DNA from: a virus
Lineage: Duplodnaviria > Heunggongvirae > Uroviricota > Caudoviricetes
DNA length: 32,803 nt
IMG/VR virus record: IMGVR_UViG_2617270990_000007
Reading direction: 5' to 3' (one strand)
The position numbers and the translations under genes are program-made. The first letter of the stretch is position 1; each line of letters begins with the position of its first letter. Shown here piece after piece: positions 2,893 to 32,803 of this stretch. A model generated the notes under the pieces. It was not told the DNA's origin and made no database searches. It was given only the letters and a program-made list of their open reading frames with translations.

Positions 2893-2894
2893 TT

Positions 2895-3287
2895 TTGTGG
2901 AGTAAGTTGATGCGTGATATTCAGATGGTTCTTGAGCGTTGGGGGGCATGGGCGGCTAATAATCATGAAGATGTGACCTGGTCGTCCATTGCCGCCGGTT
3001 TTAAGGGATTAATTCCTTCAAAAGTAAGATCTCGTCCGCAATGCTGTGACGATGACGCGATGATCATTTGTGAATGTATGGCTCGCCTGAAAAAAAACAA
3101 CAGCGATTTACATGATTTATTGGTGGACTATTATGTCGGCGGCATGACTTTTATGGCGCTTGCACGTAAGCATGGGCGATCTGATTGTTGGGTTGGCAGG
3201 ATGCTCCAGAAAGCTGAGGGCGTAGTGGAGGGCATGCTGATGGTGTTGGATCTCCGATTGGAGATGGATGCTGATTGTTCGAAATAA
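2895..3287 (+). CDS. late-gene antiterminator Q (phage 82 / QuuD type)
   Basis: Translation …[39 protein letters not shown]…[11 protein letters not shown]…[10 protein letters not shown]… matches the ~127-aa Q antiterminator family; true start probably the internal ATG giving MRDIQMV. Confidence 0.7.
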
Positions 3288-3299
3288 TTAAAGGAAAAG

Positions 3300-3328
3300 T
3301 TGCTGTCTGATTTTCATTAGTCTAACAT
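3300..3328 (+). promoter_or_regulatory. candidate pR'-like late promoter (TTGCTG - 17 nt - TAACAT)
   Basis: -35/-10-like hexamers with 17-nt spacing, 13 bp downstream of the Q stop; position matches lambdoid pR'. Confidence 0.35.
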
Positions 3329-3377
3329 TTTAAATGTTGGAATCGCAACGTAGTTATTATCATATAACAGCTTGTTT

Positions 3378-3405
3378 CCTGATTTAGCCAGCCTCCCCAA
3401 AGGCT
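3378..3405 (+). terminator. intrinsic terminator, candidate tR' (target of Q antitermination)
   Basis: Stem CCAGCC / GGCTGG with 8-nt loop followed by a T7 run, about 50 nt downstream of the putative pR'. Confidence 0.55.
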
Positions 3406-3442
3406 GGTTTTTTTCTAATAAGTATCATTTCGGGTGGGGATT

Positions 3443-3967
3443 TTATTGTTTAACCCATAATAGTTCATTGACATTGAATCCCAACTTTTGAGCGGTACGC
3501 ACATAGTCTGCTTTTACATTATCTGGAATAGTTTGGGTCCTTGCCAGAATCCATAGGTATTCTCTGTTCGGACCACTGACAAGAGCATACTTATACTCAT
3601 CATCCAGTTTGATTACATTATAGCCACCATAGAAGGGGCCAAAAAACGAAACTTTCAACGCTGCAGTTTTAGTATCTCCAGTAAAGTATGCTTTACCTTC
3701 GCTCTCGCTCCATTTGTTTTTCGTTGGATCGTATCCACGGTTAAGTACGCGAATCCCTCCGTCGTTCCGTTTTTCATAAGTAGCGCTGACCTGTTCCAGA
3801 CCACGTTCGAACCAGTTCTCGAGGCGAGCTATTTCATACCATTTTCCGAGGTAGCGGTTGGCGTCAAAATTTGTAATCGGCTGCACACCTTTAGGTGGTG
3901 TCGGGGCCTTACATGCTATAAGAGTGAAAGAGAGTGCAATGCCAGTCAACACAGGCCATAACTTCAT
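3443..3967 (-). CDS. lipocalin-family outer-membrane lipoprotein (Blc-like)
   Basis: 174 aa; lipoprotein signal with lipobox LIAC; strong similarity by eye to E. coli Blc (…NFDANRYLGKWYEIARL…FERGLE…KVSFFGPFYGGYNVI…YLWILART…). Confidence 0.8.
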   Translation of the reverse strand: MKLWPVLTGIALSFTLIACKAPTPPKGVQPITNFDANRYLGKWYEIARLENWFERGLEQVSATYEKRNDGGIRVLNRGYDPTKNKWSESEGKAYFTGDTKTAALKVSFFGPFYGGYNVIKLDDEYKYALVSGPNREYLWILARTQTIPDNVKADYVRTAQKLGFNVNELLWVKQ

Positions 3968-4159
3968 AATAAATCCTGTACTTTTGATAGTTGAGAGTAA
4001 GTATGAAAGATAGATGAGTACGACCGATCACTTAAAGAACTTTCCTACTATATTAGGAATAGTCAATAACAGAAAAATTGTCAGTGATGAAGCCAGAAAG
4101 GCAATTTAGTCCGTGCACTACAAAGTTTATGTGTTAATGAATTAGTCAAGGGGGAGGAA

Positions 4160-5119
4160 ATGATAAAAAAACCTGTGATTGGGATCAGCGGTTGTTTGGG
4201 CGGTTCTGCTGTTCGTTTTGATGGTGGTCACAAAAGAGATGACTTTTTAATGGACAAATTAGTGGAATGGGTAACATTCAGACCAGTATGTCCGGAAATG
4301 GCTATAGGGCTGCCAGTTCCGCGTCCTGCTCTACGACTTGTGCGCTCGAAGCAAGGAAATATACGGATGTGTTTCAGCCACGACCAGAATGAGGATGTGA
4401 CAGAGAGAATGACAGAGTTTAGTCGTTCTTATATGGACAAATTAAAGGATGTATCGGGGTTTGTGGTTTGTGCTAAATCTCCCAGCTGTGGCATGGAGCG
4501 CGTGCGTGTCTATGATGAAAATGGTAATCGAGGTCGTAAAGATGGAGTGGGACTATTTACGAGCACTTTGATGGAAAAGTTTTCCTGGCTACCGGTTGAA
4601 GAGGATGGGCGATTACATGATCCAGTGCTTCGTGAGAATTTTATTGAAAGAGTTTTTGCTTTGCATGAGCTCAATCACCTTTACAAGGAGAAATTATCAA
4701 GAAGAGAGTTATTAGCTTTTCATAGTCGTTATAAGCTTCAGTTGTTGGCGCATAGCCAGGCAGGCTATAAAGATATGGGACCATTTGTGGCTGCAATACA
4801 CGAGTGGGCGGACCTTGAATCATACTTTGAGGTGTATCGTGATAATCTGATGGCGATTCTCAGAAAACCAGCATCACGTAAAAATCACACGAATGTGCTG
4901 ATGCATATACAGGGGTATTTTAGTAATTACTTAAGTACACGCCAGCGTAAAGAGTTGAGCGAGGTTATACTTAACTATCGCTTTGGCACATTGCCTCTTC
5001 TTGCGCCGTTGACTCTGCTGAAGCATTATCTGGGTGAGTATCCTAATGATTACTTGCTTACACAGAATTACTTCGATCCCTATCCGGAAGAACTGGCTCT
5101 AAGACTGATGGTGAATTAA
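4160..5119 (+). CDS. DUF523/DUF1722 fusion protein (TudS/YbgA-like)
   Basis: 319-aa ORF with SD GGGGGAGG upstream; N-terminal Cys-containing region and C-terminal YbgA-like region recognised from memory only. Confidence 0.55.
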   Translation: MIKKPVIGISGCLGGSAVRFDGGHKRDDFLMDKLVEWVTFRPVCPEMAIGLPVPRPALRLVRSKQGNIRMCFSHDQNEDVTERMTEFSRSYMDKLKDVSGFVVCAKSPSCGMERVRVYDENGNRGRKDGVGLFTSTLMEKFSWLPVEEDGRLHDPVLRENFIERVFALHELNHLYKEKLSRRELLAFHSRYKLQLLAHSQAGYKDMGPFVAAIHEWADLESYFEVYRDNLMAILRKPASRKNHTNVLMHIQGYFSNYLSTRQRKELSEVILNYRFGTLPLLAPLTLLKHYLGEYPNDYLLTQNYFDPYPEELALRLMVN

Positions 5120-5516
5120 CTGTATGCGATATCATCTGAAAGTGATGAGTTCCTGTATGCAGGATATTTACAATCGTAAAAACTACGCTATGATGCTCAT
5201 AGTGTCAGTTTTTATAAAAATCCTGTTCACGCTAAAGAAAACATTGAGATGCAATTTAATGTTGGTAAACATACCAGCCCCAAAAGATTTTATTCAATCT
5301 GTTTTTATATGAAGATATTTCAAGTGAATATAAAGAGCATATAATATTATTATTGCACGCAGCTATTATAATATAACAGATTAGTTTAATGATTTGTTTT
5401 TTGTGAGTTAAACACATGGTTTTATAGTTGTGATGCAATGAGATTTTCCTTATTGTTGAACTGGCGAATATTGATTTTCCACCTATACTTACCTGGTGTA
5501 ACCCCAATGATATCAG

Positions 5517-6239
5517 GTGGATAATATGCCATACATATGTTCTATCATTTTGGTGTTGAACTCGTTTGGTGTCCGAATTGGTAAAGAAGATATTTTGTTT
5601 AAAAAAGGAAATGCTGTCCTCATTGAATACAATTTAAAAGATCTTTTTTCGTCAAATACAGATCATCTAATGATCGTAGATATTGAGGAGAAAACAGTTA
5701 ATGATTTCTTTAAAAACTACACACTCTCACCTTTTTCTGTAAGAAGGTTTTATCCGTCATACTTGATAGTAGAATGTGAAGATTTTTCATTGTTAAGGAA
5801 CTTGGTTGCATGCTTGAATTGTGATAGCAAAACCGTGGATGTAGTTAGAAATCAAATATCACTTGCATGTCTTGCTGTCTTATCTTCAGAGAAAATAGTG
5901 CAAAGTTTTTTGTTCGGAAGTCTTAATAGCTTAGGTTGTAAAGTTAAGGCTATTATTCACTCGGATATCTCAGCGTCATGGAGACTTTGTGATATATCTT
6001 CAAGATTATATATGAGCGAGAGTTTGTTAAAAAGAAAATTAAAAGACGAAGGATTATCGTTTAGTAAATTAATTCTTGAAGAACGAATGATGATGGCGCA
6101 AAGATTATTGATCTACAGTAACCATACTGTCGGCAAGGTGGCGGGAATATGCGGGTATGACAATGCATCATATTTTGTAAGTGTTTTTAGAGGATATTTT
6201 GGTGTGCCTCCGCACCAATATTTATCAAGATTTTCTTAG
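5517..6239 (+). CDS. AraC/XylS-family transcriptional regulator
   Basis: 240 aa, very AT-rich; C-terminal AraC-type HTH signature (…ASYFVSVFRGYFGVPPHQY…). Confidence 0.75.
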   Translation: MDNMPYICSIILVLNSFGVRIGKEDILFKKGNAVLIEYNLKDLFSSNTDHLMIVDIEEKTVNDFFKNYTLSPFSVRRFYPSYLIVECEDFSLLRNLVACLNCDSKTVDVVRNQISLACLAVLSSEKIVQSFLFGSLNSLGCKVKAIIHSDISASWRLCDISSRLYMSESLLKRKLKDEGLSFSKLILEERMMMAQRLLIYSNHTVGKVAGICGYDNASYFVSVFRGYFGVPPHQYLSRFS

Positions 6240-6429
6240 AAGATATGATGTGATGGCATTTTATAAAGTTATTTTTTGAAGTGTAAGATTATACGATATT
6301 TTTAGCTACGCCAGAATAATTGCTGGCGTTTTTCTTTTTGAATAGATGTTCGGGCCTTACGCTAATGTAACTTCTTTCCTTCTTCGAACCAAACCGTGTA
6401 CACCATCCGTTATCTGCGGAGGTGAGGCT

Positions 6430-6645
6430 ATGAAATCCATGGATAAGTTAACAACGGGCATCGCCTACAGCACCTCTGCAGGCAGTGCTGGCTACTGGTT
6501 TTTACAGTTGCTCGATAAAGTCACGCCCTCACAGTGGGCGGCAATAGGTGTATTGGGTAGTCTGGTATTTGGCATGCTGACGTATCTGACAAACCTTTAT
6601 TTCAAGATTAAAGAAGACAGGCGTAAGGTTGCGAGAAGAGAGTAA
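6430..6645 (+). CDS. lambdoid holin (EssD/S-like)
   Basis: 71 aa from ATG at 6430 ([31 protein letters not shown]…), SD GGAGGTGAGG upstream; closely resembles DLP12 EssD. Confidence 0.8.
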
Positions 6646-6649
6646 TCCA

Positions 6650-7201
6650 ATGACTCAAGACTATGAACTGGTTGTGAAAGGAGTTCGCAATTTTGAGAAT
6701 AAAGTGGCGGTAACTGTAGCCTTACGGGACAAAAAACACTTTGACGGTGAAATTTTTGACCTGGACATCTCGCTGGACCGTGTTGAAGGTGCCGCGCTGG
6801 AGTTTTATGAGGCAGCAGCCAGAAGGAGCATCAGACAGGTCTTCCTGGATGTTGCTGCCGGGTTATGTGAAGGGGATGAGCAGTCGCCGGAAAAGCGCCC
6901 CATAATTTTAGAGGCGCAGAATGTGTGGATAACCTACAAAGGAAAGCTACCGGGAAGAATTACTGGTTCTCTGAAGACGCCACCGACGGCATTGCGGTCA
7001 GAAAAAGATGATATTGAATCGCCCATTGAAAAACTGGAGGGCAGCGTCGCTGATCTGAATAAAAAATTGTCGGTGCTGATTCCTTCTGAAGATGAAAAAA
7101 AACGCCGCGATGAGCAGTTTGCGGCGTTTTACGATTATTGCATTGAAGTTACTCGCAGGAATTTTGTGAAGATTTTTGAGGAGGGTAAATCTCTTCAGTA
7201 A
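6650..7201 (+). CDS. hypothetical protein (183 aa) within the lysis cassette
   Basis: ORF between holin and endolysin; start taken at the ATG giving MTQDYELVVKG; no recognised motif. Confidence 0.45.
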   Translation: MTQDYELVVKGVRNFENKVAVTVALRDKKHFDGEIFDLDISLDRVEGAALEFYEAAARRSIRQVFLDVAAGLCEGDEQSPEKRPIILEAQNVWITYKGKLPGRITGSLKTPPTALRSEKDDIESPIEKLEGSVADLNKKLSVLIPSEDEKKRRDEQFAAFYDYCIEVTRRNFVKIFEEGKSLQ

Positions 7202-7409
7202 GCTTATTGGCGGACGCTGCAATTAATTCAGGAAGGTCCGCAAGGTCATCTGTCAGTGGATATGATGAAAAATCGGCGGCAGTTCTGTTAAGAAGCGCTT
7301 TAACTAATTCCTTTTCCTTCTCCGGCAACAAGTTGATTAGAGCTACGACTGCTTGCCTGAGTGCGATTAAATCAGCAAAAGTTTGTTTAGGTAGATTTGT
7401 GTAATCCAT
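7149..7409 (-). CDS. hypothetical small protein (86 aa), antisense to the lysis cassette
   Basis: ORF with AGAGG SD-like sequence about 6 nt upstream of its ATG; overlaps the 3' end of the preceding gene. Confidence 0.3.
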   Translation of the reverse strand: MDYTNLPKQTFADLIALRQAVVALINLLPEKEKELVKALLNRTAADFSSYPLTDDLADLPELIAASANKLTEEIYPPQKSSQNSCE

Positions 7410-7522
7410 AGTCGCCTCTGTGTTTATCAGATTGACATCCTCCTCCCGCCAGTGCCCATCACTGGTGAGGTAAGATTTAACATATCCGGGGATTTGAAGC
7501 CGATAAATCCTGATAAATATCC

Positions 7523-8550
<1,028 letters not shown>

Positions 8551-8910
8551 ATTAATATTAAATCGGATTATTTTTAGCGCTGAATGTGAAATTTAAATAA
8601 AAAGGACTCTTCCATGAGTCAAAATCCTTGAAATCTTAAGGGTAAGATAAAAGGTCATTAGACAGAATGACACGTTTTATTAATAAATAAAGCTATTGTT
8701 TCATTCGTGTGTTTTTCTTTACAAAAGTAATCCTTGCTATGGTTGGTTAATCATGCGTTAATGGTGTTCTGGTTTGTTACAAAATTATCTGAAGCAGTCA
8801 TTGTTATAATTTTATTATTTGTACCTCTTGAGATTTCCTTGTTGGTTTTTCTCTCTGATATTTTTTTTCGGACCATTCTGCCCAAGGGCTAACTTCTTCA
8901 AAAGGTAATA

Positions 8911-9126
8911 ATGATGTCTAACAAAATGACTGGTTTAGTGAAATGGTTTAACCCTGAAAAAGGTTTTGGTTTCATCACGCCGAAAGATGGTAGCAAAGAT
9001 GTGTTTGTCCATTTCTCAGCTATTCAGAGCAACGATTTCAAAACGTTAACTGAGAATCAGGAAGTCGAATTTGGTATTGAGAACGGACCTAAAGGCCCCG
9101 CGGCTGTTCATGTTGTGGCACTTTGA
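8911..9126 (+). CDS. cold-shock protein (CspA family, CspB/CspI-like)
   Basis: [13 protein letters not shown]…KGFGFI…[10 protein letters not shown]… canonical cold-shock domain; long AT-rich 5' leader upstream. Confidence 0.9.
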
Positions 9127-9369: not shown

Positions 9370-9458
9370 GGCTTTCAGCGGTGTAATGCGGGTTTGAGCA
9401 CCACATAAAGCCACTGAAAGCCGCTATAAATCACCCGAGTGTGGACACTGTGTGGACG
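9370..9458. other. candidate attL of the P2-like prophage (core region plus Int arm-type direct repeats)
   Basis: Two direct repeats GTGTGGAC (9439..9446, 9450..9457) at the int 3' end resemble the P2 Int arm-site consensus as I recall it; 11-bp inverted repeat GGCTTTCAGCG / CACTGAAAGCC (9370..9380, 9412..9422) just outside int. Confidence 0.4.
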
Positions 9459-10444
9459 TTTTCGGGTTCAATGCCGCCCTTTAACGGATTGAGTGTTACG
9501 GCATCTTGTAAATACTCTGGCGCGAAGTGCGCGTAGACCATTGTCTGCTCTATGCGCGCGTGACCGAGTATCCTTTGTAGCGTGATAATGCTTCCTCCGT
9601 TAATCATGAAATGCGTAGCAAAACTGTGCCGTAGAGCATGGGTTGCCTGTCCTGCTGGCAGGTCGGGCTTTACCTCTTTCAGTACCTGCCGGAACAACGT
9701 GTAATCGGCATTCGGGAACAGGAAGCCGCGCTTCACGCTGGTGAGTATTTCACATACTTCTGCCGATACTGGCACCGTTCGGGGTTTGTTCGTTTTGGTT
9801 TTAACAAACGTCACCCGATTATGGATGATGTGCTCGGCTTTCAGTTTTGCCGCTTCACCCCACCTAGCGCCCGTGCTTAGGCAAAGAACCGCTATTTTTT
9901 TATTGTCACCATCGAGCCGCGAGAAAAGGGCGGTAATTTCCTCGTTGGTTAAATAGCCCGTTTCGGGCTTCTCCTCTTTGAGTCGTTTACGTCCTCTTAT
10001 CGGGTGTTCGCCATGGTATAGCTCGGCCTCAATCAGAGCGGTAAACATTCCGCTGATGCATGTCAGATCCCGATTGATGGTAGATGGCTTAACGCCTTCA
10101 CCTCGCCGAGCTGCAACATACTGGCTAATTACCGTCTTTGTAATCTGAAACGCGCACGGATCACCGGTTATCGCCGCGAATTTCTCGACCTTTCCCCGAT
10201 TGTACTTTCCCCATTCCTCGTGCTTTGCCTTGAGTTCCCACCAGATTTGAATCAATTCGGAAAGTTGCCTTTTATCGGTCGGCTTCGCTAACCAATCCTT
10301 GTTGTGGTGGTTGTATTGCGTGTGCTTCTCAAAGGCCACTGCCTCACTTTTCTTGTCAAACTTCCTGCGGATGCGTTTTCCGTTGCGTCCGCTAGGTCTA
10401 ATGTCCACTTCATAACGACCATCATCGAGTTTCTTAATTGTCAT
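9431..10444 (-). CDS. int: P2-like tyrosine integrase
   Basis: 337 aa; C-terminal catalytic region with R…HALRHSFATH…LGH…Y motif typical of tyrosine recombinases; adjacent to C and cox in P2 order. Confidence 0.9.
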   Translation of the reverse strand: MTIKKLDDGRYEVDIRPSGRNGKRIRRKFDKKSEAVAFEKHTQYNHHNKDWLAKPTDKRQLSELIQIWWELKAKHEEWGKYNRGKVEKFAAITGDPCAFQITKTVISQYVAARRGEGVKPSTINRDLTCISGMFTALIEAELYHGEHPIRGRKRLKEEKPETGYLTNEEITALFSRLDGDNKKIAVLCLSTGARWGEAAKLKAEHIIHNRVTFVKTKTNKPRTVPVSAEVCEILTSVKRGFLFPNADYTLFRQVLKEVKPDLPAGQATHALRHSFATHFMINGGSIITLQRILGHARIEQTMVYAHFAPEYLQDAVTLNPLKGGIEPENVHTVSTLG

Positions 10445-11845: not shown

Positions 11846-12013
11846 ATGACAATTCAAACAAATGAACGCGCGCACCTGCTTGGATTGTTACGTATCAAAT
11901 TAACCTTGCTGAAAAAAGAAAAACTGTCCACCAATGAAATTTATCGCAGCCTGGAAAACTGGATCGACAACAGAGAACAGGCCGCAGAAATCAAGGAGCA
12001 AAAAAGTGATTAA
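11846..12013 (+). CDS. small ORF (55 aa) overlapping the methyltransferase start
   Basis: ATG with G-rich SD 8 nt upstream; stop TAA overlaps the GTG start region of the methyltransferase; below the 60-aa cutoff of the ORF track. Confidence 0.3.
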   Translation: MTIQTNERAHLLGLLRIKLTLLKKEKLSTNEIYRSLENWIDNREQAAEIKEQKSD

Positions 12014-12998
12014 CTCCCCTCTGATCTGGGCTGGCGGCAAGTCTCGCGCGATGCCTCATGTACTGGATGCTCTGCCGCAGGGTGAATGCCTCGTTGAGCC
12101 TTTTGTGGGTAGTGGTAGCGTCTTTCTGAATACAGACTATAAAACCTATATTCTGTGTGATAGCAATGCAGCCCTAATTAATTTCTTCTCTATGGTTAAG
12201 CGCAACACAGAAGCGCTTTTAACTTATGCATCCGCCTTGTTTTTGACTGGTAATAATGAAGATGCATATTACATAAATCGTGATGACTTCAATATTTTTA
12301 ATCGCGAGTACGCAGGGCATAGAGAGCAATATACAAATGATGAATTAGTTAAATATGCAGCGCTATTTCTTTATTTGAATCGTCACTGCTACAACGGTGT
12401 TTACCGTGTTAATTTAAAGAATGAATTCAACGTTCCTTTTGGTTTTCGTAAGAAGCCAATTTTCCCTGTGGCTGAGATTCAGCATTTTGCAAAAAGGGCT
12501 TGGGACAAAGGGGCAATGTTCCTGCATGGTGATTTCAGAGAAACAATTCCTCTATCTATCGGGCATTCAGGCTGCGTGGTTTATTGCGATCCTCCATACC
12601 TGCCAGCCAGCGAGACTGCAAATTTTACTGCATACGGTAAGCCCTTTACTGATGAAGACCATCGCGCCCTGGTTGCGATGCTTTCACGCCTCTACAACCA
12701 GGCAAAAATACCCTCTGTTATTTCCGGCAGTGACACCCCGGAAACGCGCCAAATTTACTACCCGTTCACCCTTAACTCATTCGAAGTCCGGCGTTCTGTG
12801 GGAGCAAAAACACGCAATCTCGCGGGTGAGGTGATTGGTTCGCTGCTCGTCTGTGACGAGTGCGGGCAAGTAGGGCGTGGTTATTGCGCTACCTGTTGCC
12901 CTGCCGTTGCTGGCGATGGCTATGAATCTGGAAGCGATACCTTTTGCTGTCGCAACTGCGAGATCTGCGATTCATACACAGCAGCAGAGGACTTCTGA
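12006..12998 (+). CDS. dam: Dam-like N6-adenine DNA methyltransferase with Cys-rich C-terminal extension
   Basis: SPLIWAGGK (AdoMet-binding motif I) and DPPY (catalytic motif IV); GTG start with AAGGAG SD 6 nt upstream; C-terminal ~55 aa carry ten Cys (CDECG…CATCC…CCRNCEIC). Confidence 0.85.
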   Translation: MINSPLIWAGGKSRAMPHVLDALPQGECLVEPFVGSGSVFLNTDYKTYILCDSNAALINFFSMVKRNTEALLTYASALFLTGNNEDAYYINRDDFNIFNREYAGHREQYTNDELVKYAALFLYLNRHCYNGVYRVNLKNEFNVPFGFRKKPIFPVAEIQHFAKRAWDKGAMFLHGDFRETIPLSIGHSGCVVYCDPPYLPASETANFTAYGKPFTDEDHRALVAMLSRLYNQAKIPSVISGSDTPETRQIYYPFTLNSFEVRRSVGAKTRNLAGEVIGSLLVCDECGQVGRGYCATCCPAVAGDGYESGSDTFCCRNCEICDSYTAAEDF

Positions 12999-13644: not shown

Positions 13645-16224
13645 ATGTCTTCATTTCGCCGCTCTCATAGCATGACCAACATGCCGGGAGGCTCTATCGA
13701 GCCAGCCCGGTATGCTTACGCCTGGAATGAGCCAAAAGCCGCCATCTTCGTTGATAAGGCTCCCGCTGTTGATCTATATGAATTGGGTCAAGAGCAGGAG
13801 TTTTTCGCCTGGGTTGAAAATCCCCTCAAGCCGTTGCCTATCTTCATTCGCCGCCGCATTGCCTCTTACATAAATACCGTTCACGAGGATAAAGGGCGCC
13901 ATATCGCAAAACTGAAGTTGCGCGACATCGTTAAGCGCGAGCTTCCACACGTCAGAAACGTCACGAAACAATACGCTGTGCCAGAAGACAATGAGTGGAT
14001 CATTTTCTCTGAACTAAACCCACTGTTTCACTCGTTTGAAAATCTGCGTGAACTTGTCCGCCGCTTTAATAATCTGGCGGATTGCACGGATGAAGATATT
14101 GATTTGCTGGCTCAGGACATAGCCATTTATGCCAATGCTGTTTTGGCTGAAGTGAGCGAGGGTGCAAGTGTGTTCAACGATACTGAATACACCAAACGCA
14201 TGCTGCGTGAAGGCTCCAGGCTGATTGCGTATTTCAGGTTAGTGCCGCCCTGGGCGAAGAAGCGCCGGATGGCGCTTGATGAAGCGACAGCAGCAATACA
14301 AAAAACCCTTCATGATCGCTTTTGGTCACGCCTCCTGCGCAAGTACGCCCGCCGCTGGCGCGAGCATTTGCACATTGCCTATGGTGACGTGCGCCGCGAT
14401 GTTTCACCGTATTGCAGCAAACACCACGTTACGCAGTGGGATTCACGCCGTAAGCGTAGCCGCGCAATTATGAGCCGCCTTGAACTTGAAGATCAGGTAA
14501 CTGGTGAGCGCATTTCGCTGATAGAGCAGATTGATAAGAGCATTTCTAATCCTGAAAAGCGCCGTGTTGAGTTGATGACGCGCATTGGTGGATTTGAGAA
14601 GGTGGCAACGGAAAGCGGGTTTGCCGGCAGTTTCTTCACCCTGACCGCGCCGTCTAAATATCATGCCTTTACAGCGTTCGGGCATCGTAACCGCAAATGG
14701 AACGGAGCCAGCCCCCGCAAGACACAAAACTACCTTAATCGCGTCTGGCAACTGATCCGCGCGGAGCTTGCGCGCCGTGAGATTTCTGTTTTTGGCCTTC
14801 GTGTTGCAGAGTCTCACCATGATGGTACTCCGCATTGGCATGGCCTTCTGTTCACAGCCCCAGAGCATACCGGCGAATTGCTGGAAGTGATGGAAGACTA
14901 CGCCACGCGTGAAGATGCTGATGAACTCACCGGCAAGAATGGCAAACAGCCCCGCTTTGAACTTAAGCCGATAGATCCGGCTTTGGGGAGCGCTACTGGA
15001 TATGTCGTTAAGTACATATCTAAAAACATCGACGGTTATGCACTGGATGGTGAAAGCGACGACGAAAGCGGACGCCCACTGAAGGAGACAGCAAAACACG
15101 CTACTGCCTGGGCTTCATGCTGGGGCATTCGTCAGTTTCAGTTTCTGGGTGGCGCGCCGGTGTCCGTCTGGCGTGAGTTACGCCGCCTGAAGAATCAGGA
15201 AATGGCAGATCGAATCAGTCCGGTTTTCGGTGAGTTACACCGCGCCGCCCATGCCGGGAACTGGCAGGACTACATCACCTTGCAGGGTGGTCCGTTCGTG
15301 ACACGGAATAGGCTTGTGTTGCGCGCCTGGTATCAATATCGGGATGAGCCGAGCAGTTACGGCGAGTTTCAGAGGGTTATTAAAGGGGTGGTCATGCCAG
15401 CATCGACCGTTCCTCCGGTTGAAACCCGCCTCCATTCTTATCGCATTGTCAAAAAGAAGCCAAAAGCAGACGACGCCGCCGATCGAGGTTTTGACCTTAA
15501 GGGCGCGCCCGCGCCCTCTTGGACTCGTGTCAATAACTGTACTGAGTACAAAAAACATACAAATCAAGGGGCGGTAAATCCACCGCCTGAAGATCCAGAA
15601 CAATATGAAATTGGTCAAATGAGCCGAGAGCAGAAAAAACGGCTTAATGAGAGCATCAGAAATTACAAACCAAAACAGCAAAAATCACCTGCTGATGTGT
15701 TTGAGTCGCTTGCCAATGCTATTGCCGCTTCAGATTGCGATAGCGCAGATCAGGAGCGCGCTGAAAATTACATGAAAGTGGCGGCGGCTATCCGCGATGA
15801 ATCAGCAACCCGGCGGAGCAGTGTTGTGGAGGCCACACCAATGACTGCTCACCTTCGCTATCAGCTTTCCTCTTGGGGAATTAAGTCCAAGCCTGATATT
15901 GATGCCCTTCGTCGCGGGGCTTTGCTTTCTTTTGATGATCGACATGTTTATCTGAAGGATGGCTATCTGGTAGAAAAGACCAAAGCAATTTACTGTAGGG
16001 CTAGAGATTGTAATGCGGAGTTAAATCAGGATGATATAACCTATGGCGATGAAAAGCTCTGCTTGGCTTGTACTATGAAGCTGAAGGGGGTAGAAGTAGT
16101 CGAACAGCGCCGCGATGAAGTTAAGCAGAGAGTTAAAGCGGAAAGGAAGCGGGAGAATGATGTACTCCTTGAAAGATTAAGGGTTGCGCTCATTAATGGG
16201 GGGAAGCGTGGGCAAGTACTTTGA
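13645..16224 (+). CDS. A: P2-family replication initiation protein A (rolling-circle endonuclease)
   Basis: 859 aa; central block …FFTLTAPSKYH…HHDGTPHWHGLLF…GYVVKYISKNIDG… matches the P2 gpA family (conserved Tyr/His motifs). Confidence 0.9.
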   Translation: MSSFRRSHSMTNMPGGSIEPARYAYAWNEPKAAIFVDKAPAVDLYELGQEQEFFAWVENPLKPLPIFIRRRIASYINTVHEDKGRHIAKLKLRDIVKRELPHVRNVTKQYAVPEDNEWIIFSELNPLFHSFENLRELVRRFNNLADCTDEDIDLLAQDIAIYANAVLAEVSEGASVFNDTEYTKRMLREGSRLIAYFRLVPPWAKKRRMALDEATAAIQKTLHDRFWSRLLRKYARRWREHLHIAYGDVRRDVSPYCSKHHVTQWDSRRKRSRAIMSRLELEDQVTGERISLIEQIDKSISNPEKRRVELMTRIGGFEKVATESGFAGSFFTLTAPSKYHAFTAFGHRNRKWNGASPRKTQNYLNRVWQLIRAELARREISVFGLRVAESHHDGTPHWHGLLFTAPEHTGELLEVMEDYATREDADELTGKNGKQPRFELKPIDPALGSATGYVVKYISKNIDGYALDGESDDESGRPLKETAKHATAWASCWGIRQFQFLGGAPVSVWRELRRLKNQEMADRISPVFGELHRAAHAGNWQDYITLQGGPFVTRNRLVLRAWYQYRDEPSSYGEFQRVIKGVVMPASTVPPVETRLHSYRIVKKKPKADDAADRGFDLKGAPAPSWTRVNNCTEYKKHTNQGAVNPPPEDPEQYEIGQMSREQKKRLNESIRNYKPKQQKSPADVFESLANAIAASDCDSADQERAENYMKVAAAIRDESATRRSSVVEATPMTAHLRYQLSSWGIKSKPDIDALRRGALLSFDDRHVYLKDGYLVEKTKAIYCRARDCNAELNQDDITYGDEKLCLACTMKLKGVEVVEQRRDEVKQRVKAERKRENDVLLERLRVALINGGKRGQVL

Positions 16225-16495
16225 TGATTATGAACGGGAAGCTGACTATCAAAATTGGCTCTATTATCGAGAATCTTCGCATGAGGAACGTGAGTCAAAA
16301 AGTCATTATATCAGCCAGGATGAAGCTGAGGTGGAAAGTAGGCCTAAGTTGGTTGTGACGAAAATTGAATGGCCCGCAGTAGACGTGTTTCGTGATTTCC
16401 CTGAACACCAAGCCCTGATTACCGCTGCGGAAAAAAAATACTTTGAGTCAAAATCATGCGTTCGCGACACTGGGGATGACCAAGATGATGATTGA
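16196..16495 (+). CDS. small acidic protein (about 99 aa), P2 orf91 position
   Basis: ATG-started ORF overlapping the last ~29 nt of A; highly acidic, ends DDQDDD. Confidence 0.35.
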   Translation: MGGSVGKYFDDYEREADYQNWLYYRESSHEERESKSHYISQDEAEVESRPKLVVTKIEWPAVDVFRDFPEHQALITAAEKKYFESKSCVRDTGDDQDDD

Positions 16496-16516
16496 TAATG
16501 TGTTGTAAGGTATAAG

Positions 16517-16560
16517 TTTCAGAATAACAAGGTGTTGTAAAAAATCTTGTTATTCTGAAA
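16517..16560. repeat. perfect 15-bp inverted repeat between convergent genes (possible bidirectional terminator)
   Basis: TTTCAGAATAACAAG - 14 nt - CTTGTTATTCTGAAA, 22 nt after the plus-strand ORF stop and 5 nt after the minus-strand ORF stop; no clean U-tract on either side. Confidence 0.4.
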
Positions 16561-16564
16561 GTGG

Positions 16565-17716
16565 TTAGATAGGGGAATTCATGCTATCGGGTGCTGTTAC
16601 TACCAAATGAACTTTCGTTAATCTTTCAACCGCAAGTTTAGGCAGTACACTATCAAAAATAGCTAAATAATTTTCCAAAAGGGAATTAATATAATCAAGT
16701 TTGCCATGCTCAATCTCATACCAAGTGTCAGGGAGATACCTGACTATAATGCTTAATGTATATAATACGACTAAGTGTAATACAAAGGGATCTTGAGTTC
16801 CCCAAAATGGGACAATTACACTCGTTCCACAATAACCAGATTTGTGTGTCGTGACATAATCCCACCATAGCTCATCTTCAGGGTGATGGACTTCTCCTAC
16901 AAAATATGGTTGGTCATATTTTGTGAGGTTTTCTTCTGACTCAATTTCAATGTTTTTTATTCCAATGTTGTAAGAATTAAGCTCTTCTGCTGTTACATCG
17001 CTACCTTTGGGATAAATTGCGGCATATGTAAAACCTGAGAACTCTGGTTTAGGACGCGATAGGCCACCGAGTGACTGATTCCTTGATCTTAAGAGCATGT
17101 TTCTACTTGCTTGTCCAATTTGGAATGAAAGTGGATCTTCACCGAAAGTTTCTTGTAAAAGCGGTCTTAATTCTGGAATTCGTTTTAATAAATCAGTTAA
17201 AGAATAGGTGCGTGATGGGTCTAAATCTTCATCTTTTTTTGGACGTCTTTCTGTTGCATACTGTTTGATATCAATTCCTATATGCTTTGCATATGAATAA
17301 AAATGTCCACTTTTAAGACAGCCTATTTTTATATTGTCTGGGAATGTTTCATTTTCAACAGATTGTGTGAATAGCCCATGACCTGAAACCGTATGCTTTT
17401 GAACATTTTTTAAATCGTCGTTAGGATCCCCTGATGATATTTGTTCAGCTAAGCTTATCTGTAATAATGCATAATATCTGGATAAAATTTTTGAATTGAG
17501 TCCGCCATTTTCAGTCTCCCAATATCCGATTGCACTTCGTATTGCGGAGGACATTCCAATGGATTTTTTAATCAATACATCCTCTTGCAATGACGGATGA
17601 TTATTTTCTATTATTTTCTTACAGAGCTGCGCACTCATTAATCGTTTTAATCGTAACCAGATTGCACCGCTAACATCTGCTGCAACGAAACGTTCTATTG
17701 TTTTTTCTGATGACAT
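16565..17716 (-). CDS. hypothetical protein (383 aa), hotspot cargo gene 2
   Basis: Long AT-rich ORF with AAGGAA SD 5-6 nt upstream of ATG; no domain recognised by eye. Confidence 0.6.
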   Translation of the reverse strand: MSSEKTIERFVAADVSGAIWLRLKRLMSAQLCKKIIENNHPSLQEDVLIKKSIGMSSAIRSAIGYWETENGGLNSKILSRYYALLQISLAEQISSGDPNDDLKNVQKHTVSGHGLFTQSVENETFPDNIKIGCLKSGHFYSYAKHIGIDIKQYATERRPKKDEDLDPSRTYSLTDLLKRIPELRPLLQETFGEDPLSFQIGQASRNMLLRSRNQSLGGLSRPKPEFSGFTYAAIYPKGSDVTAEELNSYNIGIKNIEIESEENLTKYDQPYFVGEVHHPEDELWWDYVTTHKSGYCGTSVIVPFWGTQDPFVLHLVVLYTLSIIVRYLPDTWYEIEHGKLDYINSLLENYLAIFDSVLPKLAVERLTKVHLVVTAPDSMNSPI

Positions 17717-17995
17717 CGCTGTTCCTTAGTTGACGTATTACAACTTTTCAAAGTTAACCATACTCTACAAAATTAGTGGTACTAAAGGGAGCATTTTTTG
17801 ATTGCCAGCAACTTCAAATCACATAGCGGGGAGCTACAATGTAGTGTGTCGCGGCTTGGTCCTTGCTAAGAATCCATGTATAACTGAGCGCCACGAAATT
17901 GTAATGCCCTTCAAAGACCGCCGGGATTGGCGGCTTTTTAGAGTTTACTTCTAGTTTTATTGCTTCAAAATAGAGATAAAAGATAATATGGCTTA

Positions 17996-19345
17996 TCAGT
18001 TAATATCAAAGCCTTCGATCTTCTCATACATCATTTCAAACCATTTGACTCGTTGTCCAGGTATTACAGCCATGAATGCGTACTCAGTGAGCATATCAGA
18101 GGAACGTAGTTCTTCATCGGTGGCTAAGTGGTATTTTAACAATATTGCAATATAATAAATCTCAGAAACATCGACAAGGTTTACAGGAATTGATAATCGT
18201 TTAAATATCTCATCTTCTGTCAGTTTTTTGTTTAATATTTCCATGAGTAAGGATTGGTTGAATATTTTCAAGAAAGCAACTAGTGCGATGGCAACATGAA
18301 ATATTTCATGTCGGTAGGAATTTACTTCGCTGGGGTCGTTCATTATTGCGAATGTTGAATAGCAACGCTCAGCCTCTCGCAGTGAACAGTTATTCATTTC
18401 TAGAAGATACGCGAGGGTTTTTACGAGAGAACCATTCCGAATCAGTATGTCATTCCCTTGATCTAACGACAGGAGATATTGTGTTAACGTTGAACGTTCA
18501 TAGCCTGCTCGGCAGCCTACTGAGAGCATACTTTTTTTAGGAAGAGTAAACCAATAATGAATAAATTTATTTAAATATAATCTTGTATTTATGCTCCCAT
18601 ATCTACACTCTATACTTTTTTCAAACTGCTCACGGTTAACTACTAGTAAGAAAACAAAACCTTCCACTGAAAATATATGTTTTATTTTCTCTAGCAAGTC
18701 AAGGGAAAAATCAGGTCGCGACCTGTCTAGCTCATCAATTATAAATATTATTTTTTTCCCACACTCAGTGTGAATCTTGGTCAGCAATGCTCTAAATTGC
18801 TCAATTGTTGCTAACTCACTCTCGCTCGTTTTTATTTTTTCTTCAATGTACTCTTCAATAGGTGATGTGAGAGAGTCACTGATGGCATCACTTGCTTTCT
18901 CCAGTGCGTTACCTGAGACTAATCCACTTGTGAAAGTGCTTACGGCAAATTTTGCACCATTAAGTGCGAATGACGCGCCTAGTTTTTTACCAATGGATAA
19001 TAACTCTTTCCCGAGGTTTTTAAGCTTTCCATCTTCTTTTTTTATGAGTGAATAAATTTTTGATGTTAAGGCTACAAATGGGTCTGATTGATAGTCATTT
19101 TCAAAAGCGTCAAAGTAAATAACGTCAAAGTTGTCAGCATGGTTTTTATTTATTTCTGATGACATCATTTTTACAAATGAGGTTTTTCCGTTACCCCATT
19201 CATCATTGAGCGCAAGTACAAGACTTTTATCTGGGGCATTTGTTGCTACCCGCATGATGATGTCATGAAGTTTTTTACGTCCAAATATGTCATCTGCTGT
19301 ACTAAAACCATCTGAGAACGCTTTAACAGGAGCGGTCAATCGCAT
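17996..19345 (-). CDS. KAP-family P-loop NTPase (449 aa), hotspot cargo gene 1
   Basis: Walker A with the KAP-typical Trp (NDEWGNGKTSF), following F-D-A-F…D-P-F segment, Walker B IIFIIDELDRSRPDF; GAGGAA SD upstream of ATG; AT-rich. Confidence 0.7.
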   Translation of the reverse strand: MRLTAPVKAFSDGFSTADDIFGRKKLHDIIMRVATNAPDKSLVLALNDEWGNGKTSFVKMMSSEINKNHADNFDVIYFDAFENDYQSDPFVALTSKIYSLIKKEDGKLKNLGKELLSIGKKLGASFALNGAKFAVSTFTSGLVSGNALEKASDAISDSLTSPIEEYIEEKIKTSESELATIEQFRALLTKIHTECGKKIIFIIDELDRSRPDFSLDLLEKIKHIFSVEGFVFLLVVNREQFEKSIECRYGSINTRLYLNKFIHYWFTLPKKSMLSVGCRAGYERSTLTQYLLSLDQGNDILIRNGSLVKTLAYLLEMNNCSLREAERCYSTFAIMNDPSEVNSYRHEIFHVAIALVAFLKIFNQSLLMEILNKKLTEDEIFKRLSIPVNLVDVSEIYYIAILLKYHLATDEELRSSDMLTEYAFMAVIPGQRVKWFEMMYEKIEGFDIN

Positions 19346-19548
19346 AATTTCTTTTCCTCATTTATTTAATGATTTAACGGCATCATAACTAGGCATGAGG
19401 TTACTTTTCAATAGAGTAAAGTGATGCACGATTGTGCGCAAAAATGCACAATAAAATCAGCCCCTTTTTGGGATTATCGAGGCAGGATCTGCGGGGGCTG
19501 GCGGTGGATCTGCAAGTGCACGAAAACACGAGTGTTCGTTGCGCGCAG

Positions 19549-19567
19549 GTGACGGGGGGAAAGCCCG
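19549..19567. other. candidate cos site of the P2-like prophage
   Basis: GGTGACGGGGGGAAAGCCC matches about 15 of 19 positions of the P2 cohesive end as I recall it, in the GC-rich gap between the hotspot and portal gene Q. Confidence 0.4.
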
Positions 19568-19750
19568 CGCGGCGGGGGGGTAGGGGGATGCCTCAAATAT
19601 AGGGAAATTGGCGCAATTCTGGCGCGCTGCTGCGTTCTGTGTGTTGTGTGCGGGTAATGGCGTGTTTAGATGATGGGGCGCTTAGAATGGCGCTGGCGCG
19701 CCGTGTGTTGATGTGATGCTAAGAGCGCCGCCGGACTGGCGGCGGTGTGG

Positions 19751-20812
19751 TTATTTGGTGGATTCAAGCAGGGCGTAAGGTTTAAAGCGGATCACTTCTT
19801 CGCCAAGCCAGTCGTTGACGTGCTTCAGTGCTTCCATTGCTGGCATCAGTTCGTTGATGGCAAACACGCGCGCGGCTTTCTCCATATCACCGAATGAGCC
19901 GTTGCCGTCCGGCATGGCCCCCATCAGTTGCGGTGGTACGCGGTGAGCGGCAAGGATGTCATCACGCGTAGCTGATTTAATATTTAAAAACTCATCCTTT
20001 GCAGATATCTGGCTGAAGGGCATCAGTTGTACCCCATCTTTGCCGCCGCCTGGTGCGTGGATCACTACGTTCTTAAATGCGCCTTTGTTCCTGGCTCCTG
20101 CCAGTGTTTGCTGTATCTGTTTTACACCAGCGTCATCTACCTGTGATGTGCCGATGTAAAGAATGCAGCCAGCATGAGATCCGTTCTCATAGTACATTTT
20201 GCGAAACATGTCCGCCGAGTGTGACAGGCTGGCTGACAGCAGGGTGCCCATATATTCCGGCATCCCGTAGATTTCCTGGTGAATATCGGGGTTCAGCACG
20301 TGGCAAACTGTGCCGGTTTCAAAGGCGCATTCGTCTTTCCACTGCCTGATAAACCAGTACGTGTCCAGGTCGGTGCCGCGCCGGGTGTACTTCGCAGGGG
20401 AATGGCGAAGCGGTAGCCGCCCGCCTAGCCGGTTCTTTCGTTCTTCAAGATAGAAGTTGCCAAACACAAACCAGTCAAGCGCCAGGGCGGAGAACGTCTG
20501 GCGAGACAGTAGCGGGTGTGGAATAAAGCATCCCGCCAGCGCGTTGCGCTTGAAGTACAGCGCTGACTGGTGCCAGGATGCTTTGCCGAATGAACGCGCA
20601 AGCCCGTACCAGTCCACCGGCGTTTCGTAATATCTGCCGTTGTCGGCGCAATACATATTGTCGAGTAGGTCGTAAGCGTCCGCGACCTGGTATGGCCCAT
20701 CAAAGGTGAAGGCGCTCAGAGCGGGATCGCGCTTTAGTGCTTCGCCAATATCAGCCTGTTGCGCGCCGTCAGTAAGCATGGTCATACCGCTTTCATGTGT
20801 TGTTGTGTTCAT
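19751..20812 (-). CDS. Q: portal protein (P2 gpQ-like)
   Basis: 353 aa; size, position next to cos and upstream-adjacent to the terminase ATPase; similarity to the gpQ family by eye. Confidence 0.85.
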   Translation of the reverse strand: MNTTTHESGMTMLTDGAQQADIGEALKRDPALSAFTFDGPYQVADAYDLLDNMYCADNGRYYETPVDWYGLARSFGKASWHQSALYFKRNALAGCFIPHPLLSRQTFSALALDWFVFGNFYLEERKNRLGGRLPLRHSPAKYTRRGTDLDTYWFIRQWKDECAFETGTVCHVLNPDIHQEIYGMPEYMGTLLSASLSHSADMFRKMYYENGSHAGCILYIGTSQVDDAGVKQIQQTLAGARNKGAFKNVVIHAPGGGKDGVQLMPFSQISAKDEFLNIKSATRDDILAAHRVPPQLMGAMPDGNGSFGDMEKAARVFAINELMPAMEALKHVNDWLGEEVIRFKPYALLESTK

Positions 20813-22536
20813 TAAAACTCCATAACGAAACTACCGCCGCCGCCGTTCTCGCGTCCAAGCGGCTCGTTGATGACTGCCAGCATATTGGCCCAGGCTAAGT
20901 CGCCGTGACTGACTCCGCGCGCGCGGTCGGTGTCATAAGTGACTTGTCCGCCGGGGGTGGTGATCTTTCTGACAGCGTTGAATGCTGACACTAGCGCCTG
21001 TTCACTGCGGTCATACTCCCAGCGCCCCGCGCGGATCACCTGTTGCATTTTCAGTACCAGGGTGCGCTTTGATGACAGCGACATTATGAAACAGACCGAA
21101 GCCGGGAAGAACTTTTTGACCAGTTGCCAGACCGCTTCACCGATGCCGGTGCCGTCAATTGCGATGTGTCGAACGTTATATTTCATCGTCAGGTCTTCGA
21201 TCACTTTGGCCTGTTCTTCAAACTCCATCCCGCGTAGCTGGCGCGTCTCTATCGTGCGGAACTTGCCGCCACTGACAAGGGGAGGGGCAACCACGGAAAC
21301 AGCGCCGCTGTCACCGTTGCCGCTGCCGCCGTTGGCGTCGTAGCCTATCCAGACTTCACGATCACCCAGCGGGCGGGGTGCGTAGGGTTTCCAGTCCTGC
21401 CAGTCGTCGTAGCCGTCCGCGCCACACGTCAGTAGCTGATTGAGTGAGAAAACAGCCTCGCCTTCTCTGACGAACTCACACATGTACAGGTTGGTGTATT
21501 CGTCCGGGGTGTTTTCGTCCTGGATTTCTTCCAGGTCGGTGAACTCCCAGCCGTGGTCGATCACGTCCTTTAGGGTGACAATCTGCCGCCAGGTTTTGTC
21601 CGGGCACAATAGGCCGCTGTTTAGCGTTTTCCAGCTTGTGTCGAAGTCTACCCTGCTGGACTTGGCCCGCTTCTCATTCCAGCGCTTGCCCGTCCAGAAG
21701 GGGTAGGCTTCGTGGCTTTCGCTCGATGGCGTTGAAAAGTAAGTGCGCGTAAGCCCTTTCAGGGTTGCCATAGCGCCAGCCACTTTGCGAAGGTTGGCAA
21801 AGTTGCCTACCCAGAAAAATTCATCAAAAAACAGGTTGCCGGTGTAGCTCTGCGCAGTAGCGGCAGACGTGCCGAGAAAATGCAATTCAGCCCCGTTAGA
21901 CAGCAAAATTTTGTCACCGCCCTTTAGTTCTACGTCTACCTCTTCGGCAATCTTCTGAATGAATCCCCGGAACTGGTGCGCCTGGCGGCGTGACGCTGAC
22001 AGAAAAATCTGGTTGCGTTGGTATCCGTGCTTAACGTCATCCCGCAGCGCCTGTAATAGCGCTTCGCGGGCAAAATACCAGGTTGCGCCAATCTGGCGAC
22101 TTTTCAGGATCATGCGGTTTCGTTGCTGGCGCTGTTCAAACCATCCCTGCTGATGCCAGGCCAGAGAGTCCTGAATTTTTTCCCGCAGCGCGGCGATCTG
22201 CGCTTCGGTGAAGTGGTTTTTCTTCTTGCCCGCGCGCGCTTTCTTGAAGGGTTGCGCCGGTTGGCCTTCTGCCAGCTTCTTCACCTGGCGCGTGAGCGCG
22301 TCGATTTCCTTCAGATCGCCGCCGGTCTTTGTTGGTTTCATCGCGATTTGGCATAACCGGGCATCAATAGATTGTGTGACGCGCTGAATCGCGGGCGTTT
22401 CGTCCCATTCGTCGCGCTTTTTCCACGAATAAACCGTGTTCTGACTGATACCCATCAGGCGTGCGATCTCTGCTGGCGGGTAGCCCTGCCAGTAAAGCTG
22501 CTTTGCTCTCTGTCTTACAAATGCGTCCTGGATCAT
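20812..22536 (-). CDS. P: terminase large (ATPase) subunit (P2 gpP-like)
   Basis: Start set at the internal ATG (MIQDAF…) with AGAGGA SD, because the longer track ORF would cover the late-promoter dyad at 22602..22619. Confidence 0.85.
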   Translation of the reverse strand: MIQDAFVRQRAKQLYWQGYPPAEIARLMGISQNTVYSWKKRDEWDETPAIQRVTQSIDARLCQIAMKPTKTGGDLKEIDALTRQVKKLAEGQPAQPFKKARAGKKKNHFTEAQIAALREKIQDSLAWHQQGWFEQRQQRNRMILKSRQIGATWYFAREALLQALRDDVKHGYQRNQIFLSASRRQAHQFRGFIQKIAEEVDVELKGGDKILLSNGAELHFLGTSAATAQSYTGNLFFDEFFWVGNFANLRKVAGAMATLKGLTRTYFSTPSSESHEAYPFWTGKRWNEKRAKSSRVDFDTSWKTLNSGLLCPDKTWRQIVTLKDVIDHGWEFTDLEEIQDENTPDEYTNLYMCEFVREGEAVFSLNQLLTCGADGYDDWQDWKPYAPRPLGDREVWIGYDANGGSGNGDSGAVSVVAPPLVSGGKFRTIETRQLRGMEFEEQAKVIEDLTMKYNVRHIAIDGTGIGEAVWQLVKKFFPASVCFIMSLSSKRTLVLKMQQVIRAGRWEYDRSEQALVSAFNAVRKITTPGGQVTYDTDRARGVSHGDLAWANMLAVINEPLGRENGGGGSFVMEF

Positions 22537-22601
22537 GCGGTGTCCTCTCGTTTCGATGGAGAGATTAACCCGCGCGCGTGGGCCGTTCCCGCTGTTTGGG
22601 T

Positions 22602-22619
22602 TGTGGGCCGTCTCTGACA
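22602..22619. promoter_or_regulatory. late-promoter activator dyad (TGT-N12-ACA) in the divergent P/O promoter region
   Basis: TGTGGGCCGTCTCTGACA; centre lies about 55 bp from plausible start points for both P (leftward) and O (rightward). Confidence 0.5.
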
Positions 22620-22692
22620 ACTAAAACGCGTTGAGACAATGACTTAGCAACTGACATCATGGAAAAACAGAAACCAACCGGCAGGAAAGAAC

Positions 22693-31498: not shown

Positions 31499-31540
31499 TG
31501 AACCGCCCCGGGTTTCCTGGAGAGTGTTTTATCTGTGAAC

Positions 31541-32431: not shown

Positions 32432-32754
32432 TTTTTCCAGAGGCGGTCGAACTCCGCCTTCGCAAAATAAGCGGAAGCCTGGCGAAGGATATCGTTACTG
32501 CGGCGCAGTTCACGATTTTCACGTTCCAGCTCTTTCAGACGCTGACGTTCAGCGCTGGTGAGCCCACCATCACCGCCCCCGGTATCCCGCTCATGCTGGC
32601 GAACCCAGACACGCAGAGTCTCCGGCGTACAGCCAATCTTTGGGGCAATGGAACAAATTGCCGCCCACTGTGAGTCATATTCATCCTGACTTTCCAGAAC
32701 CATACGAATCGCCCGCTGACGGACTTCGGGGGAAAAACGAGTATTTTTAGTCAT
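32428..32754 (-). CDS. IS3-family transposase OrfA (copy 2)
   Basis: Translation identical to ORF 911..1237. Confidence 0.9.
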
Positions 32755-32803
32755 CCTGTTTACCTCTTTCTCAGGGAGTTTAGTCTCCAGGATTTCCGGG
32801 GCG

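Follow-up and report, generated by a model that had tools for sequence, protein, structure and literature searches.

A YaaC-family gene in the GpA-portal hotspot of a P2-like prophage as a candidate one-gene anti-phage cassette

We analysed a 32,803-nucleotide (nt) stretch of Caudoviricetes DNA (IMG/VR record IMGVR_UViG_2617270990_000007), referred to here as the window, which carries a P2-like prophage with an integrase gene at 9431-10444 and Cox and C-type regulators. Our subject is the gene for a 383-amino-acid (aa) protein of the YaaC family. Together with a gene for a KAP-family P-loop nucleoside triphosphatase (NTPase), it fills the AT-rich interval (G+C fraction 0.35-0.38) between the replication gene GpA and the portal gene GpQ. 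Among the documented defence hotspots of P2-like phages, this interval is the main one (PMC9122126; PMC13586616), and in P2 the slot is occupied by tin and old (PMC9122126). Its content differs between related prophages, and the YaaC gene is cargo of this hotspot. The features of the interval and its borders are as follows.

13645-16224, plus strand: GpA, the P2 replication protein and left border of the hotspot (Pfam Phage_GPA, E 6.7e-95).
16517-16560, no strand assigned: inverted repeat or hairpin, a probable terminator, 5 nt past the YaaC stop codon, with 20-nt arms that are 90% complementary.
16527-17730, minus strand: mobile cassette as delimited by blastn, comprising the ribosome-binding site, the coding sequence and most of the hairpin.
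16565-17716, minus strand: coding sequence of the YaaC-family protein, an ATG-to-stop open reading frame (ORF) of 383 aa.
17722-17727, minus strand: Shine-Dalgarno sequence AAGGAA, 5 nt before the ATG and within the DNA that travels with the YaaC gene.
17918-17933, no strand assigned: G+C-rich hairpin in the 279-nt spacer between the KAP and YaaC genes, a terminator-like match with a predicted fold of -18.9 kcal/mol (z -4.0, minus strand).
17996-19345, minus strand: KAP-family P-loop NTPase of 449 aa (Pfam KAP_NTPase, E 6.7e-38; PADLOC PDC-S20, E 1.2e-74; PHROG 8614).
19751-20812, minus strand: GpQ, the P2 portal protein and right border of the hotspot (Pfam Phage_portal; same gene order at loci L033-L037).

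The original prediction, which was made from the sequence alone, had described a long AT-rich ORF with a good Shine-Dalgarno sequence, and both observations hold: the frame has 383 codons at a G+C fraction of 0.363, and AAGGAA stands at the expected place. The strand, which that prediction did not give, is minus. The encoded protein is acidic (43.4 kDa, isoelectric point 5.7) and predicted to be soluble. G+C content is 36.3% in the YaaC gene and 36.7% in the KAP gene, compared with 51-54% in the flanking phage core genes. Long ORFs occur by chance in AT-rich DNA, and the YaaC gene lacks a clear promoter of its own, as would fit a spurious or decaying frame in AT-rich hotspot DNA. This idea is refuted by the conservation data and has practically no chance of being correct. 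Comparison with five orthologues, from Klebsiella, Citrobacter, Serratia, Cronobacter and Yersinia, gave a ratio of non-synonymous to synonymous substitution rates (dN/dS) of 0.07-0.13 at dS values of 0.2-1.5 (Nei-Gojobori), indicating purifying selection. A word-indexed search returned 187 homologues at E<=1e-3, nearly all of them full length, which span several bacterial phyla and include one archaeal metagenome-assembled genome; an alignment of 31 family sequences contains 48 invariant columns, and AlphaFold2 models the protein with a mean predicted local distance difference test score (pLDDT) of 91. Because dN/dS is low and homologues are numerous, we count the 383-aa ORF as a real and intact gene.

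It had also been claimed that the protein has no recognisable domain. This part did not survive a Pfam search, in which the YaaC-like family PF14175 matched at E 3.7e-20, with 73 bits against a gathering cut-off of 27. The match covers residues 48-366 and profile positions 29-307 of 307, and thus the whole domain rather than a fragment; the domain is recognisable and the function of the family is uncharacterised. PF14175 is also matched by all 31 aligned relatives, and both NCBI and UniRef list the identical protein (P0001) as 'YaaC family protein [Escherichia coli]'. On the basis of these matches, we assign the protein to the YaaC family. As the sequence and the family name are already in databases, the protein is not new; what is new is the evidence that the long YaaC branch behaves as single-gene hotspot cargo.

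Canonical YaaC proteins are 309-337 aa in length. Members of the branch studied here share with the PF14175 prototype, Bacillus subtilis YaaC, a significant full-length match to the hidden Markov model, but they are longer (about 370-400 aa) and sparse (from 1.84 billion representatives, a family profile search drew 397 clusters at 50% identity). Unlike canonical yaaC, the Enterobacterales relatives that we examined lie on prophages, satellites and islands, with no fixed chromosomal position. A sub-clade of roughly 500 aa (P0169, P0180, P0184 and about 25 others, for example Aeromonas WP_082037587.1) is extended at the N terminus by a domain of ~135 aa, in which we found no Pfam match and no nuclease-like acidic motif and in which the only conserved positions are H-x-W, Y and W-N. 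One protein (P0235, 757 aa) has a further extension of about 260 aa. Queries for YaaC in a defence context, for PF14175 and for IPR026988 found nothing relevant in the searchable literature; an apparent YaaC match in integron papers was the DNA consensus 'RYYYAAC'. YaaC is absent from the text of both P2/P4 hotspot surveys (PMC9122126, PMC13586616) and from those supplementary tables of Rousset et al. 2022 that are available as text, one of them incomplete (PMC9122126).

The extent of the mobile DNA was defined with blastn. Seven other loci (L038, L040, L041 and L043-L046) share 72-80% DNA identity with the window, in alignments that start at 17730 or 17728 (17716 for L044, which is 72% identical), end at 16565 or 16527 and never run beyond these positions. 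Homology between contexts begins 12-14 nt upstream of the YaaC ATG, including the Shine-Dalgarno sequence, reaches the stop codon and, in several contexts, extends through the downstream hairpin. This hairpin, which has a predicted RNA fold of -17.1 kcal/mol (z -9.0, minus strand), follows the YaaC stop codon in six of seven contexts, with compensatory A-U to C-G changes, and is probably a terminator between the convergent YaaC gene and a 103-aa ORF. Because the shared DNA is confined to the ribosome-binding site, the coding sequence and the hairpin, we read the mobile unit as one gene with its own ribosome-binding site and terminator. In the window, the hairpin at 17918-17933 may be a weak terminator after the KAP gene. 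No sigma-70-like site was found between that hairpin and the YaaC ATG, so read-through from the KAP gene is possible. Given the shared strand, the modest spacer hairpin and the lack of a recognisable promoter, co-transcription of the KAP and YaaC genes is likely.

The original prediction had offered two roles for the protein, as a partner of the KAP NTPase or as an independent single-gene system, and had proposed co-occurrence with KAP NTPases as a check. YaaC orthologues at 74-85% identity have no KAP gene at any of the following loci. In Klebsiella and Serratia, the YaaC gene stands alone directly after the primase of P4-like satellites, and the primase-att interval is a minor P4 hotspot (PMC13586616). 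A copy in another P2-like prophage is inserted among the tail genes: gpS is on one side and gpV on the other, and a reverse transcriptase (RT), a DUF5677 gene and a RES-domain gene accompany it; the tail genes are also a published P2 hotspot (PMC13586616). The Yersinia copy occupies the opposite strand between a lambdoid Q antiterminator and the genes for methylase and lysis. In Citrobacter the gene follows an Abi_alpha gene, once in an integrase island linked to transfer-messenger RNA and once in an insertion without an integrase, and in Cronobacter it follows a gene for a 601-aa protein with no Pfam match in a 186-like prophage. Two Enterobacter prophages and one IMG/VR contig have the order umuD-umuC-YaaC-SRAP at the prophage end, with 112 nt between umuDC and YaaC. 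In the loci with this prophage-end arrangement (L056, L061, L063 and L064), the SRAP gene (YedK-like) is on the opposite strand; at L063, the SRAP gene is followed by genes for HEPN_LA2681 and a 1356-aa DUF8371 protein.

Conserved co-occurrence was not found among more distant relatives either. A KAP homologue was present within 8 kb at 0 of 32 more distant YaaC loci, drawn from bacteria of several phyla and one archaeal metagenome-assembled genome; all-against-all ORF clustering of these loci gave no conserved YaaC neighbour outside a Burkholderiaceae trio, and a Walker-A scan of the genes upstream of YaaC homologues revealed no recurrent NTPase. In the trio (L014 from Burkholderia, L017 from Caballeronia and L028 from Paraburkholderia), genes for an 818-828-aa protein, the YaaC homologue and an overlapping or abutting 285-307-aa protein lie together. 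Neither flanking protein of the L014 copy has a Pfam match, and a 1105-aa uncharacterised protein is encoded upstream.

The converse also holds, as KAP homologues (65-77% identity) occupy the same portal-GpA slot without YaaC. In Salmonella the KAP gene is entirely alone between ogr/portal and GpA, in Klebsiella it shares the slot with small ORFs only, and in a third arrangement it is accompanied by an oppositely oriented Exo_endo_phos gene and a 160-aa ORF. The KAP NTPase is a common and independently mobile occupant of this slot in Salmonella, Klebsiella and others (L047-L054). PADLOC models PDC-S20 as a single-gene candidate, and Reve, a one-gene KAP system found in a P4 hotspot, protects by itself (PMC13586616). 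We judge the KAP gene to be a separate single-gene candidate defence system outside the YaaC cassette. The YaaC gene resembles these KAP systems (PDC-S20; Reve, PMC13586616) in being single-gene cargo of P2/P4 hotspots, and the adjacent gene is of that type, but the YaaC protein lacks a P-loop, shows no resemblance to KAP and has a distribution independent of it.

It is possible that, in this prophage, the two genes nevertheless form one two-gene system, with KAP as sensor or switch and YaaC as effector, or the reverse. They share a strand and are separated by a 279-nt gap with a weak hairpin and no clear YaaC promoter, and their near-equal, atypically low G+C fractions (0.363 and 0.367) suggest joint residence or joint acquisition. 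At a viral contig locus, L058, a 41%-identical YaaC gene begins 1 nt after a DUF2326 ABC-type ATPase gene, which indicates that YaaC-like genes can be operonic with NTPases, and in P2 hotspots the gene paired with KAP can also be a different one, for example PIN_12 (Rousset Table S5) or Exo_endo_phos, a pattern that might be interpreted as effector swapping. Draft and metagenome assemblies contain the exact YaaC protein in 113 indexed blocks, and the same prophage with the KAP-YaaC pair was present in 24 of 24 contigs examined. These invariant contigs, however, are one clonal prophage and thus one observation, not independent evidence. Moreover, each gene occurs without the other in close relatives, including the solitary Salmonella KAP; PDC-S20 is modelled as a single gene, and Reve protects alone; the Exo_endo_phos genes are on the strand opposite KAP; and the homology of the YaaC cassette stops 12-14 nt before the ATG, so that KAP and YaaC do not move as one DNA unit. 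We therefore regard a two-gene system as quite unlikely. The L058 arrangement spans 4174-9065 of an IMG/VR contig, where the YaaC gene is followed by an AAA_15/AAA_21 ATPase gene, and is the only tightly operonic NTPase-YaaC arrangement that we saw.

Thus the cassette is autonomous, and YaaC and KAP are independent in both directions. Because the mobile unit is read as one gene, an obligate partnership with KAP is unsupported: both genes are found without the other, and KAP is missing from the 32 distant loci. The suggestion of an independent single-gene system fits the orthologues that lack KAP and the restriction of shared DNA to one gene.

We next consider what the protein may do. AlphaFold2, run with the 31-sequence alignment, gave a confident single-body model (mean pLDDT 91.2, predicted template modelling score 0.90), in which an alpha/beta insertion rich in strands, about 190 residues long, separates the long helices at residues 45-66, 73-93, 310-327 and 341-367. 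The model upholds no transmembrane segment; the most hydrophobic stretch is helix 310-327, which lies within the globular body. In a set of 224 family members, of which 82 fall below 35% identity, the positions conserved at >=90% are K51, Y81, Y82, A90, T109, G112-H113-G114, G137, P181-E182, S293, P303, Y319, S322, R326-Y327, P329, W332, G338 and P359. One invariant histidine, one arginine and one glutamate suggest a defined binding or catalytic site. Searches of PDB sequences with phmmer and with a profile (hmmsearch) gave no match at E up to 10, and no Foldseek match in PDB or BFVD had an E-value below 0.3; the predicted fold, though confident, appears to have no solved counterpart.

Another reading would make the protein a HEPN ribonuclease toxin of the canonical kind, in which an Rx4-6H ribonuclease causes abortive infection as in the classical AbiD/AbiF or AbiV. 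The original prediction saw no P-loop, no YxDD and no obvious HEPN Rx4-6H motif, and our analysis agrees. Regular-expression scans of the 383-aa protein found neither Walker A nor YxDD, and its sole Rx4-6H string, R365-H370 within the C-terminal RLTKVH, was ruled out as a HEPN motif as H370 is not conserved among homologues. Many relatives have R326x6H333, but residue 333 is tyrosine in this protein and arginine in the 500-aa clade, leaving only R326 invariant. When 31 members were scanned against Pfam at E up to 10, YaaC alone came back, with no HEPN family or clan relative; hhalign against the HEPN_LA2681 protein of L063 gave a probability of 0.1%; and Foldseek provided no HEPN support. YaaC therefore differs from lactococcal AbiD/AbiF ('Abi_2') and AbiV, the single-gene HEPN abortive-infection proteins, in lacking a conserved Rx4-6H and a HEPN profile match. 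In addition, the large alpha/beta insertion of YaaC is not known from AbiD/AbiF or AbiV. A canonical HEPN toxin is very improbable on these grounds.

A less conventional arrangement can be envisaged. The long mobile YaaC branch would be an unrecognised single-gene anti-phage defence family with a non-canonical active site, putatively formed by TxxGHG, E182 and RYxPxxW and seated in a helical, HEPN-like scaffold that bears a new alpha/beta insertion. We put this proposal forward tentatively, with the odds somewhat against it as a whole; that a HEPN-like scaffold would carry a nucleotide- or RNA-directed activity is, in our view, doubtful.

We asked what accompanies the family farther afield by scanning 104 genes within two positions of YaaC at 28 distant loci with PADLOC and Pfam. 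The neighbours include Drt4 (two genes, E down to 8e-208), Drt6, the UG10 large RT and Avs2 (E 0), as well as SLATT_6, DUF3800 and PIN; single-locus checks added a CHAT-domain protein (CHAT protease), a 1852-aa RT and an SMC-like DUF3584 ATPase accompanied by DUF7281. DUF2326/AAA_15 ATPases are further neighbours of defence type in distant lineages. An association with defence beyond Enterobacterales is thus suggested, but it is not exclusive, since many distant neighbours are housekeeping genes (GidA, GatB, Lon and KARI, and an AcrB efflux operon).

Taken together, these data favour, at a probability of roughly 60%, the reading that the YaaC gene is a self-contained one-gene cassette that moves between anti-phage cargo slots and is a candidate defence gene with no fixed KAP partner. 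An anti-phage role for the gene is slightly better than an even bet, judging from the hotspot contexts and from the published finding that six of eight randomly chosen uncharacterised P4 hotspot loci protected against phages (PMC13586616). The YaaC gene shares with P2 tin/old and other GpA-GpQ systems (Rousset et al. 2022, PMC9122126) the same slot between GpA and the portal gene, as well as AT-richness, transcription in the Q direction and swapping between otherwise similar prophages, but the protein has no sequence relationship to any catalogued system, as judged by the lack of a PADLOC match.

Several observations weigh against a defence reading. PADLOC-DB v2.0.0 contains no family matching the protein at E<=1, and scans against NCBIfam and PHROG gave no match. 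Bacillus yaaC is among the persistent Firmicute genes that co-evolve with PolC (PMC3814617), and because canonical yaaC is persistent in Firmicutes, the YaaC family is not intrinsically a defence family. No discussion of YaaC function was found in the searchable literature, where the list of persistent genes was the sole trace of YaaC, and the absence of a sigma-70-like site before the gene and the housekeeping neighbours at many distant loci, both described above, belong on the same side. It is possible that the gene is instead a non-defence accessory riding permissive cargo slots, with the canonical cellular role of YaaC or another service to phage or host, such as stress or DNA-damage tolerance, anti-defence or lysogenic conversion. 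The persistence of chromosomal yaaC (PMC3814617), the distant housekeeping neighbours and the lack of a matching defence-database model would all suit such a role, as would the three Enterobacter-type prophage contexts that place YaaC between umuDC and SRAP (YedK-like), which are DNA-damage-tolerance functions. Against this, three of the contexts are published defence hotspots, and others hold RT, RES, Abi_alpha, HEPN_LA2681, Avs2 and DRT genes. A promoter-less, terminator-bearing single-gene cassette that hops rapidly shows the behaviour described for defence cargo (PMC13586616), and the 112-nt umuDC-YaaC spacing and the differing partners elsewhere are contrary to a fixed functional module. 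We consider the non-defence explanation rather unlikely and prefer the reading of the gene as a mobile candidate defence cassette.

The remainder of the window places the hotspot in its prophage. Further genes of the prophage lie beyond its borders.

11934-12998: Dam-type methylase.
20812-22620: large terminase, transcribed leftward, as is the portal gene.

The O-N-M-L genes follow the terminase gene and run rightward. The 103-aa ORF that converges on the YaaC gene (16184-16495, plus strand) shares 41 nt with the end of GpA. No Pfam family matched it, and the gene calls in every copy of the prophage give it 95-99 aa; we take it to be the probable counterpart of the small ORF after gene A in P2. 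The Walker A motif of the KAP protein is of the KAP type, WGxGKT, which differs from GxxxxGK[ST]. To the left of the P2 integrase, 1843-8550 is what remains of a lambdoid prophage or of a chromosomal island, with DUF968/HNH, a Blc-like lipocalin, a 2-thiouracil desulfurase/DUF1722 protein, an AraC-type regulator in a patch of 33-36% G+C, DUF1327, a phage lysozyme and an Rz-like DUF2514 protein, so that the P2-like phage adjoins another degraded prophage. Positions 1-1286 and 31518-32803 are identical (0 mismatches), each with an IS3-family transposase pair consisting of a 108-aa HTH_Tnp_1 ORF and a 296-aa rve ORF. These terminal repeats could be two direct insertion-sequence copies that bracket a 30-kb region, the right one interrupting the P2 tail-gene block, or they could be an artefact of assembly or circularisation at a repeat. 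Megablast with the hotspot DNA (16300-19700) found nothing in 50,697 GenBank phage records, and in 5,426 complete E. coli RefSeq genomes the YaaC/KAP DNA was unmatched, the sole match being ~200-280 bp (6-8% of the query) at the portal-proximal end in two E. coli genomes. All sightings of the prophage come from draft genomes and metagenomes.

These results show the long YaaC branch behaving as defence cargo does: it moves as a promoter-less cassette with its own terminator across at least seven slots on phages, satellites and islands, and three of these slots have been published as defence hotspots. The hotspot-cargo behaviour, the confident predicted fold and the invariant residues make it a directly testable candidate for a single-gene anti-phage system. 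The analysis also corrects the likely mis-grouping of KAP and YaaC, two adjacent single-gene modules, into one system. If the gene is non-defensive, it would simply be one more hotspot gene of uncharacterised function. PF14175 has been only a Pfam name, with no study in the searchable literature; if the long branch is indeed a defence family, this would give YaaC proteins, the product of the persistent yaaC of Firmicutes included, their first functional handle.
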